The notes beneath the pieces were generated by a model, which was not told the origin of the DNA, searched no databases, and worked only from the letters and a program-made list of their open reading frames with translations. Position numbers and translations under genes: made by a program. 64,000 nt of DNA from Planctomycetota bacterium (lineage in GTDB: Bacteria > Planctomycetota > B15-G4 > SIAN01): NCBI GenBank assembly GCA_031409275.1, contig JANNXA010000009.1, positions 32,001 through 96,000 on the forward strand, read 5' to 3'. This document shows, one piece after another, positions 54,360-57,749 of this stretch. Within the stretch, counting starts at the first letter, position 1. Every line of letters begins with the position of its first letter.

Positions 54360-55032
54360 TTCGCTTCTCCTGCGAAGACCATCGGTTCACCAAGGTTGCC
54401 CGCGCGCGCCCGCGATCGCCAGCGCTCGATCGAACGCGCTTGGCGGGTCGCACCCAGCTTCGGGCGGCGGCTACTTCACGGCGGCTTGCTTGAACCGCTT
54501 CGTGAGCGTCGTCGCGGAGGTCATTCGATCGAGCAGCTCGGGGGCTGCGACGTCCGGCAGGTAGAGCGCGATCGCGGGTGCCGCGGCGATCCCGATCGAC
54601 TGCGCCAGCGTCGCGTGGTCCGCCTCGGCGCGGTCGAGGCGAAGCAGCGTCCAGCCCGAGGCCGCCTTGGCGGCATCGGCCGAGCAGAGGACCTCCTTCT
54701 CGAACTTGCGCGCGGCCGCAACTTCGGCCTTCGCCTTGGCGTCGTCCCCTTCGCGCGTCTCGCGGCCGACGTAGACCGCGACTGGAGTCCCCGACTTGCG
54801 TGCCTGCTCGAGCTCGTCACAGGTCACGCGCCGATCACTGCCGCCGCCGGTCGCGCGTACGGTCGCTCCGACGAACGGCACCAGGGTCCTGGGATGGGCG
54901 CGATCCCACGCATCAGCGTGCTTGGTCAGCCAGCGCACCAACTGCTTGGGCTGATGAGCGTCGGCATCGGACGCGCGCTCGATCACCTTGCCGTCGCTGG
55001 CGACGACGAAGACCTGGGCCGACGGGTCATCA

Positions 55033-55215
55033 CTAGCCCGCTTTATTCATGAGCCCCGTAGCGAGGCGACGGGATGTTGGCGCAGGACGAGGAGGGAAAT
55101 CGCGGCTCCGACGATGCGGGTCTGCTGACCCGCTGAGGAAGGAACGCGGTTTTCCGACGATGTCATGCGCCGACAGACCGAGCCGCAGCAGGGACTCGTG
55201 AACAAGGCGGGCGAG
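55033..55215. mobile_element. 175-bp MITE with CTAG/CGAG target duplication
   Basis: Imperfect TIRs CCCGCTTTATTCATGAGCCCC / GGGACTCGTGAACAAGGCGGG. Removing 179 nt restores GGC-ACT-AGT-GAT-GAC in the host gene. The interior is fully palindromic. Confidence 0.85.
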
Positions 55216-55324
55216 TGCCGCCGTGCTGTTGGGTCCACGGGATGACCTTGCCGTTCAGTCCGTCGTAGAGCCACTCCACCGGCTCGAAACGCAGCGCGAT
55301 CTTCGCGAAGTCGGCGTCGGCCTG

Positions 55325-55358
55325 GACTTGGGTCACGCCAGGTCTTGCAGGTGGCTCA
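55325..55358 (-). promoter_or_regulatory. In-frame UGA plus SECIS-like hairpin
   Basis: UGA, an 11-nt spacer GCCACCUGCAA, then GACCUGG-CGUGAC-CCAAGUC with GU in the apical loop. Confidence 0.55.
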
Positions 55359-55592
55359 TTGCTCGTTGGACCAGGCGGTCGCCACGAGCAGCGCCTTCCC
55401 GCTCTTGCGCGCGGCGACTACGCCATCGTCGAGCGTCTTGTGCCACCCCGGCGGAGCGGCCGCAGGAAGCACCCAACAGAGGAGCGCGAAACCTGAAGCG
55501 AACCACTTCGACATGACGCTCTCCGCGACCTCGCACGCACGCGTCGCCACGACCGCGAACGATCCTACGCGCGTCCTTCTAGACTGCGGCGC

Positions 55593-57749
55593 ATGGTCGT
55601 CGAACGCCGCGTCATCACTACTGCGGTCGCTCTCGTTGCCGCGTTATGCGGCATTGCCTCGCCGCACAACGTGCGCAGCGCTGCCGCCCAAGACGCCACC
55701 GGCGCGGCCAGCCTCGCCGAGCGCGTCAACCACGCCATCGACGCTGGCGTGGCCTGGTTGAAGTCGGTCCAGCGCGACGACGGCCACTTTCCCTGCGACC
55801 ACTGGTCGCAGGACGGATCGACGGCGCTCTGCACGTATGCGTTGCTCAAGTCGGGCGTGCTCGCGAGCGACCCCGCGGTCGTGAAGGCGATGGCCGTGCT
55901 GCACTACGCGCCCTTCGTCAGCACCTACGCGACCGCGGTCCGCATCGCGATGTTCGATGCGCACGGCGGCGCCGATCTCGACGAGCCGATCCGCGGCGCC
56001 GCCAAGTGGCTCGAGGAGCACCAACAGGAGAGCGGCCTCTGGGCCTATCCCGATCGGCAGCAGGACCTCTCCAACACGCAGTACGCGGCGCTCGGGCTGT
56101 GGATCGCGGCGCGTCACGGCTACGAGACGAAGCGTGAGACGTGGGCCAGACTGCTGAAGGAGCTGCTGCGACTTCAGTCCGAGGATGGCGGCTTTGGCTA
56201 CCGCGAGGGCGACGAGACGACCGGCAGCATGACCACCGCCGGCATCGCGATCGTCCACCTCGCCGTCGCCGCGCTCGAAGGCGACTCGCGCTACGGCTCG
56301 ACGCGCCAGAAGGGCAACGCCGCGCTCGAACGCGCCTGGCAGTGGCTGATCGACCGCTTCACGGTCGAGGGCAATCCCAACGGCGCGCGCGTCGTCTCGA
56401 ATGGCAACCATCTCTACTACCTCTTCGGGCTCGAGCGGGTGGCCGCGATCGGCGCGCGCAAGAAGATCGGCGACCACGACTGGTACGCGGAGGGCGCTCG
56501 CCATCTGGTGCGCACCCAAAGACCCGACGGCCAATGGTTCACCCCTGACGCGACGAGCTTCGCGCTGCTGTTCCTGCGCCGCGCCACGTTCACCGGCATG
56601 ACGCATGTCGAGCAGGACGCTCCCGTCGGCGGTCCGATCAGCGGCGAGCCGCAGCGCCCCGGCCCGCTCGCGCCCTTCCTGCGCCGTTGGTTGGTGGCGG
56701 GCCCGCTCGCCGATCCGAAGGACACGCTGCTGGAGGAGGCCTACGCGGGCGAAGCGACGGTCGAGCCGAAGGTGGGCAGTTCATTTCGCGGCAAGAGCTG
56801 GCGCGAGGTGCGCGAGCTCGATGATTTCGTCGGCTTCGGCGTCGACGATCGGCCGGGCGACCGCACGCTCTCCTACGCCTTCACCTGGCTGCACGTCGCT
56901 GAGCCGTTCCGCGGCGGGCTGTGGGTCGGCGCGAACGACGGCGTGGTGGTGCAGCTCGATGGGGCGACGGTCCTGTCGAAGCATGTCCACCAGGAGCTGC
57001 CGCGCGATCGCGTGAACACGCCGATCACGCTGGCACCCGGCATCCATCGCCTGCTGGTCAAAGTCGAGAACGAGCGCGACGACAGCGGCTTCACGCTTCG
57101 TTTCGCCAACGAGGATGGCACCGCCGCGCGACAGGTGAAGCCGTCGCTGAGCAAGAGCGATCCGCAACTCGCCGCCGCGGCTTTGGCGACGCCGGGCCTC
57201 TTCAAGCTCGAAGAGCTCGCGACGTTGCTGCCGCTGCTGCCGCGCCGATCGATCGACTTCAAATCGGCGAAGGACCTCGAGCTGCTGGCGTTCGATCGCA
57301 ACGGCGTATCGGGCGACGACCGCTACCCGCAATGGCTGGACGTCCCCGCGAAGAAGCCGGGCTCTCCCCACCCCGGCGCGCGCGGCGTGCTCGCGCTCCA
57401 CCCCATCACCGAGAAGGTCGCCACCCGACTGATCTTCCGTGTCGCGGTGCCGGCCGGCGCTCCGAAGCTCAAGCTCCGCGTCAGCTCGGAAGCGTACGGC
57501 GACGCGGCGCGCGCCGACTTCATCCTGCGCGTCGGCCTCTTCGGCGAGGCGCTCGAGTGGTTGCACGAGTCGACCATCGGCCCTTCGCCGACTCCATCCG
57601 CACCGGCCGCGAGCGGCTGGCGCGACGTCGAGATCGACCTCTCCGCGCATGCCGGCAGCGAACGGCTGGTCGTGATCGAGTGCGACGCCGGTGGCGGCGC
57701 ACCATGGAGTTTCGAGCACGCCTTCTTCGACGAGATCTCGCTGCGATGA
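55593..57749 (+). CDS. Secreted prenyltransferase/squalene-cyclase-repeat protein with PA14-like domain
   Basis: QW-type repeats (WLKSVQRDDGHF, QQESGLWAY, DLSNTQYA.LGL, Q.EDGGFGY, Q.PDGQW) and DG..VQLDG..L.PG.H.LLVKV. Confidence 0.75.
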   Translation: MVVERRVITTAVALVAALCGIASPHNVRSAAAQDATGAASLAERVNHAIDAGVAWLKSVQRDDGHFPCDHWSQDGSTALCTYALLKSGVLASDPAVVKAMAVLHYAPFVSTYATAVRIAMFDAHGGADLDEPIRGAAKWLEEHQQESGLWAYPDRQQDLSNTQYAALGLWIAARHGYETKRETWARLLKELLRLQSEDGGFGYREGDETTGSMTTAGIAIVHLAVAALEGDSRYGSTRQKGNAALERAWQWLIDRFTVEGNPNGARVVSNGNHLYYLFGLERVAAIGARKKIGDHDWYAEGARHLVRTQRPDGQWFTPDATSFALLFLRRATFTGMTHVEQDAPVGGPISGEPQRPGPLAPFLRRWLVAGPLADPKDTLLEEAYAGEATVEPKVGSSFRGKSWREVRELDDFVGFGVDDRPGDRTLSYAFTWLHVAEPFRGGLWVGANDGVVVQLDGATVLSKHVHQELPRDRVNTPITLAPGIHRLLVKVENERDDSGFTLRFANEDGTAARQVKPSLSKSDPQLAAAALATPGLFKLEELATLLPLLPRRSIDFKSAKDLELLAFDRNGVSGDDRYPQWLDVPAKKPGSPHPGARGVLALHPITEKVATRLIFRVAVPAGAPKLKLRVSSEAYGDAARADFILRVGLFGEALEWLHESTIGPSPTPSAPAASGWRDVEIDLSAHAGSERLVVIECDAGGGAPWSFEHAFFDEISLR

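Follow-up and report, generated by a model that had tools for sequence, protein, structure and literature searches.

A very likely pseudogenised copy of an apparently uncatalogued selenoprotein family with two predicted thioredoxin domains in Planctomycetota

We analyzed a stretch of 64,000 nucleotides from a Planctomycetota genome (here called the window), which carries on its minus strand a broken and likely recently inactivated gene whose intact relatives would encode a selenocysteine (Sec)-containing periplasmic reductase/isomerase with two thioredoxin domains; as an explanation of the whole locus, we regard this as probable. It is very likely that the intact relatives in Planctomycetota encode an exported, selenium-containing redox protein with two predicted thioredoxin-like domains, and very likely that the window copy is a recent pseudogene. 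The family appears to be real and uncatalogued, within the already known kind of UxxC thioredoxin-fold selenoproteins.

A sequence-only reading of the window had proposed an ORF start with a signal peptide and a thioredoxin-like opening, a TGA in place of the first Cys of a CxxC motif, a one-base frameshift and a 179-nt insertion that together split the gene. This minus-strand layout was borne out: the gene starts with an ATG at 55514, the TGA (55358-55356) stands in a U-x-x-C context, an extra C is found at 55330-55332, and the 179-nt insertion consists of a 175-nt element plus one 4-nt target copy. Neither lesion has a counterpart in the orthologous gene of G003, a relative of the same genus (the genome of the window is referred to as G000, and G001 and G004 are further relatives). 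With both lesions removed, the reading frame encodes 287 aa, exactly the length of the reconstruction proposed earlier. The segment upstream of the frameshift (segment A) shares 78% identity over 41 aa with the intact G003 orthologue and matches Pfam Thioredoxin_7 on its own (E 0.0012). The features of the locus, in window coordinates, are as follows.

55521..55524, minus strand: Shine-Dalgarno-like GGAG upstream of the ATG, seen in the sequence
55455..55514, minus strand: predicted signal peptide of 20 aa with an Ala-Ala-Ala end and without a lipobox (best 11-residue hydropathy 2.16)
55332..55514, minus strand: coding segment A, 61 codons by translation, covering the signal peptide, the UxxC site and the beginning of thioredoxin domain 1
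55356..55358, minus strand: in-frame TGA, putative Sec codon at the first position of U-x-x-C (TGA/Cys column in homologues)
55347..55349, minus strand: TGC, second (resolving) Cys codon of UxxC (Cys in all 43 homologues)
55325..55344, minus strand: degraded bacterial SECIS hairpin, its loop beginning 18 nt past the UGA (-4.1 kcal/mol)
55330..55332, minus strand: C run with one extra base (frameshift) within the SECIS, absent from G003
55214..55330, minus strand: coding segment B of 39 codons, which encodes the Y-D-G-L-x-G-K...W-T...G-G stretch and is frameshifted here (77% identity to G003; invariant columns)
55037..55211, no strand: 175-nt MITE with imperfect terminal inverted repeats resembling those of a resident IS1380 element (copies in the genome, shared termini)
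55033..55036, no strand: left target-site copy, CTAG (the IS1380-like element on contig C34 is also flanked by CTAG on both sides)
55212..55215, no strand: right target-site copy, one base unlike the left copy in sequence
54471..55034, minus strand: coding segment C, 187 codons plus TAG, with the end of domain 1 including the D-P motif and the entire domain 2 (67% identity to G003)
54474..54878, minus strand: predicted thioredoxin domain 2, approximate extent, without CxxC (model residues 133-270 align to thioredoxins)

The divergent neighbor of this gene (55593-57749, plus strand) codes for an exported protein that contains a prenyltransferase/squalene-cyclase-like repeat domain and has several paralogues in the genus.

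An uninterrupted allele was sought and found in G003, where the same genes flank the locus as in G000. The G003 gene is syntenic, contains neither frameshift nor insertion, encodes 294 aa with 71% identity, and has the identical TGA position and junction residues; the collinearity of the three segments in homologues was also checked and holds. Searching the C-terminal piece against 61 genomes yielded matches in only three of them, namely G000, G003 (67% identity) and G035. The G035 hit (E 4.6e-4) was discarded as an off-frame chance alignment, and the profile did not recover it. G003 was also the sole find, among the matches listed, of a degenerate-pattern scan of genome contigs, and a profile search within the class detected the gene in only two of 42 genomes, several of which are incomplete. 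In G004 and G001, the flanking genes are present at the same site and the gene itself is absent.

A metagenome scan gave 47 pattern matches, of which 29 loci were confirmed, and when 401 genomes from the phylum were searched with the profile, 28 gave matches. With 74 members among 1.84 billion representatives (E <= 1e-10), the family has a modest size. In protein databases, homologues are entered as products of 213-249 aa that begin downstream of the UGA site; 13 of the 14 other proteins obtained by the first search start past the UGA and consequently have neither signal peptide nor active site. Two kinds of related architecture were also observed. Eight entries (P0079, P0083, P0087, P0089, P0091, P0092, P0093 and L088) have the same N-terminal domain followed by a helical C-terminal region that replaces the second thioredoxin domain, and L088 has a TGA at the active site. 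In three others (P0076, P0077 and P0088), the second domain appears, by eye, without the first and behind a metallopeptidase-like region.

The sequence-only reading had looked to homologues for either TGA or Cys at the putative Sec position, and both were found. After pooling 53 loci, parsing 51 of them and removing near-duplicates, we obtained 43 non-redundant homologous loci, of which 33 have TGA and 10 have Cys in this column; the second Cys of the motif is present in all 43. The pattern used for pooling was stricter and missed L072 and L077, both of which carry TGA in the earlier count. The individual sets gave similar pictures: TGA in 24 and TGC in 6 of 30 loci (29 from metagenomes plus G003), and, among 27 loci from the phylum search, TGA in 19, Cys in 4, no motif in 3 (L085, L090 and L091) and one spurious pattern match (L086), which was dropped. 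At the same position, 15 longer database proteins have Cys (12), Ser (2) or could not be parsed (1), and the two Ser-containing homologues indicate that redox chemistry is dispensable in some members. A tree built by a quick method, in which many rows are truncated entries with the codon unknown, shows scattered Cys forms, with at least four label changes forced by well-supported branches.

The Sec machinery of the lineage was also located: G000 encodes selA, selB, selD (with one in-frame TGA) and a tRNA-Sec with UCA anticodon, and all four models scored above their cut-offs. Among the 24 other carrier genomes, selA was detected in 23, selB in 23 and at least one of them in all 24. This co-occurrence adds little, because selA is widespread in the phylum anyway (detected in 288 of the 401 genomes sampled) and genomes with the Cys form have it too. 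The same frequency of selA indicates a high level of Sec use in this phylum. From the pairing of TGA with Cys, the Sec machinery and the codon bias of the hairpin loop described below, we infer that Sec is very likely incorporated at the UGA of the intact genes.

Bacterial Sec insertion uses a SECIS element located just 3' of the UGA codon. The bacterial SECIS model comprises a loop of 3-9 nt with G within its initial two positions, a stem of 4-16 bp, a spacing of 16-37 nt and a free energy of <= -7.5 kcal/mol (PMC13188914, Fig. 2A). The hairpin of the G003 gene fits this model, with a perfect 7-bp stem, a 5-nt loop (G then U), 18-nt spacing and -10.8 kcal/mol. The loop codon is CGT or CGG in 30 of 33 TGA genes versus 2 of 10 Cys genes (Fisher P = 4e-5, a value that overstates the difference because kin are not independent), and CGT accounts for 12 of 283 Arg codons elsewhere in the TGA genes. 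Among 21 TGA genes, stem positions pair in 91% of cells, compared with 86% among six Cys genes; since the stem pairs in Cys genes too, the encoded protein sequence partly accounts for it. One stem pair is changed on both sides in 3 of the 21 sequences, covariation gives a weak signal (equalled in 17 of 500 shuffles), and several TGA members, for example L026, L066, L071 and L074, have no stem at this position. The SECIS-like hairpin of the earlier reading is thus convincing in intact relatives and weak in the window, where it stays at shuffle level (no excess over shuffles, z between -0.7 and +0.9) and fails the SECIS model: the extra base and a stem mismatch weaken it to -4.1 kcal/mol against the -7.5 kcal/mol limit, leaving one mismatch and no contiguous 4-bp stem.

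The fold and export of the protein are predictions. The AlphaFold2 model, computed from a 38-row alignment (pLDDT 92, pTM 0.69), replaced an earlier one whose alignment was shallow at the N-terminus (pLDDT 64). It contains two soluble thioredoxin domains only, so that the two thioredoxin folds expected from the sequence were indeed predicted, the second without CxxC; a CxxC past residue 120 was found in just 2 of 35 full-length homologues. In the modeled active site, a strand (22-27) precedes a helix (34-44), with U/C at 33 and C at 36. Domain 1 (1-127) superimposes on DsbD-gamma/DsbH-like thioredoxins with Z 12.2-14.3 and rmsd 2.4-3.4 A, the best match being 3f9u (Z 14.3, rmsd 2.4, 121 aligned residues), and 1vrs giving Z 12.7, rmsd 2.6 and 111 aligned residues. 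Domain 2 (133-270) matches thioredoxins with Z 10.3-10.4, rmsd 2.8 and 110 aligned residues. The top Foldseek matches are tandem-thioredoxin proteins (ERp57, QSOX1 and PDI) at E about 1e-6, and their low TM-scores (0.25-0.34) arise because the domains are oriented differently. An ESM Atlas search returned generic thioredoxin-like clusters only. Pfam Thioredoxin_7 (PF13899) scored 32.9, 28.5 and 27.4 bits (cut-off 27) in three of five intact members and below the cut-off in the other two.

Multiple sequence comparison revealed invariant residues around the active site and in the Y-D-G-L-x-G...W-T...G-G...D-P stretch, a cluster that suggests a specific binding surface. An invariant Pro (43/43) precedes a core strand in the model and is a candidate cis-proline; the residue before it is Asp in 40 of 43 loci, and PMC2665069 describes the residue preceding the cis-proline as tuning redox properties. 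The XX dipeptide of the active site occurs in 12 types, with no DsbA-like signature. A hydrophobic N-terminal stretch is present in 42 of 43 homologues, none of which has a lipobox-like motif.

Among the known kinds of selenoprotein, those with UxxC in a thioredoxin fold are the most common. Members of this kind listed in PMC13188914 Table 1 (PF13098 'thiol:disulfide interchange protein' and 'Trx-like 2', cd02953) share with the present family the UxxC motif, an in-ORF SECIS, Sec/Cys pairs and a DsbD-gamma-like domain 1, whereas proteins of the present family are soluble, consist of two domains of which the second has no CxxC, and contain an invariant insert specific to the family; PF13098 reached 17.1 bits (cut-off 27) in one of five members tested. 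The Trx7/PDZ selenoprotein NF041199 also has an N-terminal Thioredoxin_7-type domain with Sec and is the sole NCBIfam match (two of five members), but the scores of 16.3 and 14.9 bits lie far from its cut-off of 300, the PDZ domain is lacking, and alignment by hhalign to the NF041199 member of G000 itself gave a probability of just 19.5. The closest folds for domain 1 belong to DsbD gamma, DsbH and a Bacteroides cytochrome c biogenesis-related domain (1vrs, 2ju5 and 3f9u), with weak profile matches (E 0.02-0.08); unlike the present family, these are Cys-only, share 13-16% identity, and are single soluble domains or parts of membrane proteins. DsbD gamma and DsbH-type proteins are periplasmic dithiol reductases. 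DsbD has a multi-pass membrane domain, whereas our model has none, and no DsbD model matched. In the PDI-family a-b units (ERp57, PDI and the QSOX1 oxidoreductase fragment), an active thioredoxin domain likewise precedes one without redox activity, and the proteins act in a secretory compartment, but these units are eukaryotic and show 11-15% identity, TM 0.25-0.34 and rmsd > 10 A, a likeness of architecture that does not imply orthology. PDI models did not match any of five members, and ERp18/TXNDC12 gave a weak profile match (E 0.01).

No NCBIfam model scored above its cut-off in five members and four more distant ones, and the only such Pfam model was Thioredoxin_7. The catalogue of 119 selenoprotein families in PMC13188914 Table 1, as far as its entries could be compared by description only, includes broad PF13098 and cd02966 rows and has no row matching the two-domain architecture. 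The family was not found in passages on BSepDB (PMC13326102) and the GOS survey (PMC2398784), whose supplements or entries could contain members. Literature listings on Planctomycetota selenoproteins and on recent bacterial selenoprotein discovery showed no description of it either. The suggestion that the family is possibly undescribed therefore holds for those parts of the selenoprotein catalogues that were checked.

The insert in the window is likely an IS1380-type MITE, judging from its termini and genomic copies. G000 contains 20 matches of at least 120 nt, the insert included; G003 has 24, G001 has 16, and G002 and G004 have none. The inverted ends are imperfect (17 of 25 positions identical), and the 4-nt flanks of the copies are mostly NTAG and often unlike on the two sides, as in the window. 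The termini share a motif with a 1.7-kb IS1380-like element (C34:170283-171969, CTAG on both sides) and with a G003 element, and the transposase of the former shares 60% identity with a G003 protein scoring above the cut-off of the IS1380 model NF033539. The insert thus resembles the IS1380 family in its terminal motif and CTAG target and differs from it in being 175 nt long and without a transposase; an IS1380 transposase may have mobilised it. Across the genome, 175-nt MITEs and shorter palindromes share the terminal motif of the C34 element at about 20 sites; most other full copies are seemingly intergenic, and several contigs end in copies. A REP/RAYT origin was rejected: the only Y1 transposase match is separated by about 20 kb from the closest copy, and the termini match IS1380. 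An Rfam search gave no meaningful match.

That the window copy is probably pseudogenised, as had been proposed from its sequence, agrees with the extra base, the weakened SECIS, the MITE, the intact orthologue and the recurrence of the lesions in read-derived contigs. The frame beyond the UGA is not open (frameshift at 55330-55332, MITE at 55037-55211), and with the MITE, the extra base and the stem mismatch, no functional protein is expected from this copy. Its dN/dS against G003 is 0.27 (0.28, 0.34 and 0.57 for neighboring genes), and conserved residues are retained about as well as in G003, which indicates that inactivation was recent. Another gene of the same genome, L044 (C9:150164-151303), encodes a predicted exported selenoprotein in which a UGPC thioredoxin domain is followed by a Cys-less one, with a strong SECIS-like hairpin. 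Compared with the family (C9:150784), it gave an hhalign probability of 94.6 at 19% identity and passed no NCBIfam cut-off; L044 might make the loss of the window gene tolerable.

Three readings would remove either the selenoprotein or the pseudogene from this account. The TGA could be an ordinary stop with the downstream part a separate gene, which is how the short database products starting past the site would have it; this is extremely improbable, because the TGA aligns with a Cys of full-length homologues, would cut a thioredoxin domain at its active site, and recurs across several families together with a SECIS-type codon bias. Only slightly less remote is the idea that the frameshift and the insertion are assembly errors and that the organism has an intact gene. 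The entire stretch is not covered by any one contig, and contigs tend to break at the MITE because it is a repeat. Against this, contigs of two runs of one study (X1 and X2) contain both MITE junctions without differences, reaching 31-33 nt into the element from unique flanks; the extra base occurs without gaps in contigs of X1, X2 and X3 and also in a contig from a third study (X7); and the left junction is also crossed by an X6 contig of a separate study, which differs at 12 of 349 nt, some of them in conserved codons; at a depth of 4 these differences are possibly errors. The X5 contig has a further 21-nt deletion, and an empty-site joint was seen in none of the contigs listed. Finally, the lesions total 180 nt, so that the first frame rejoins segment C and is broken from 55514 to 54471 only by the TGA at 55358 and another at 55049, which would allow the copy to be fully translated still if this additional UGA were read through. 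We consider this exceedingly unlikely: segment B with its invariant residues would be misread out of frame, the TGA at 55049 lies inside the MITE and has no model-fitting SECIS (its apical loop lacks G within its initial two positions), the first SECIS is degraded, and the sum of 180 nt is explicable as a one-in-three chance.

For the intact genes, we favor Sec insertion followed by periplasmic thiol chemistry. SelB would bind the hairpin about 11 nt past the UGA so that Sec is inserted, and the signal peptide would take the chain to the periplasm. There, the UxxC selenolate would react with a disulfide of the substrate, after which the product would be freed by the second Cys, while the second domain, which lacks CxxC, and the invariant insert next to the active site may bind the substrate, as does the b domain in a PDI-type a-b unit; a DsbD-like protein could re-reduce the active site. 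In G000, an IS1380-type MITE would have entered a CTAG site, and the extra base and stem mismatch would have spoiled the SECIS. The specific activity is somewhat more probably than otherwise that of a periplasmic dithiol-disulfide reductase/isomerase; any assignment of a substrate, and of the order in which the lesions arose, is presumptive.

It is possible, though rather unlikely, that the selenoprotein instead acts in the periplasm as an oxidase, reduces peroxides or sulfenic acids, or serves as a reductase dedicated to apocytochrome c. The best structural match, 3f9u, comes from a putative exported protein of cytochrome c biogenesis, of which it forms the C-terminal domain; seven loci (and also L075) have a TsdA/SoxA-type cytochrome c gene upstream, and a VKOR-DsbA fusion is found nearby in one clade; and the Asp before the conserved Pro occupies the position that tunes redox properties (PMC2665069). 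These neighbors, however, are limited to single lineages and missing at most loci, including those of G000 and G003, and the 12 types of XX dipeptide do not point to a DsbA-like enzyme. The single-domain TsdA/SoxA-type gene, on the same strand, was observed with both TGA and Cys forms (L024, L027, L065, L067, L069, L073, L075 and L076), and the VKOR-DsbA fusion, encoded on the opposite strand, is one to three genes away in the downstream direction (L021, L026, L029, L031 and L066). Overall, neighbors vary by lineage (TsdA-type cytochrome c, VKOR-DsbA fusion, MgsA, asparaginase II, SRAP and others), and no conserved operon naming a substrate was seen among the 72 and 67 neighboring ORFs scanned. 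A broader proposal, which we hold to be doubtful, is that the family is the bacterial Sec counterpart of the PDI a-b unit, a dedicated periplasmic foldase of Planctomycetota in which the invariant insert and the inactive second domain would recognise one specific substrate of the envelope. Under this proposal, Sec and Cys would have been exchanged repeatedly, and loss of the gene within one genus would be represented by intact, MITE-broken and deleted states.

A scan of G000 detected 20 UGA-containing genes of redox type, of which 19 match NCBIfam redox families at E <= 1e-5 and five score above a cut-off. Beyond L044, about 20 UGA-containing redox genes (L045-L063) were noted; four are TlpA-like paralogues, and the others include genes for a UxxC-bearing DsbD-like protein, MsrBA and two peroxiredoxins, as well as Trx7/PDZ, VPGU-type, ArsC-like, AhpD-like and deiodinase-like proteins. 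An in-frame TGA with a SECIS-like hairpin was also seen in four more genes (C34:64177, C14:295797, C23:25248 and C43:63697), two of which encode FG-GAP-like repeat proteins and two of which encode exported proteins of other types.

The chemistry involved is of a known kind, and the G000 copy is very likely dead. What the locus points to is a well-supported family of the bacterial selenoproteome that has been concealed in databases because standard gene callers cut its genes short. Its natural Sec, Cys and Ser variants would permit a direct test of the role of selenium in an exported thiol oxidoreductase, and the locus itself provides a small, clean record of the loss of a selenoprotein gene in one genus.
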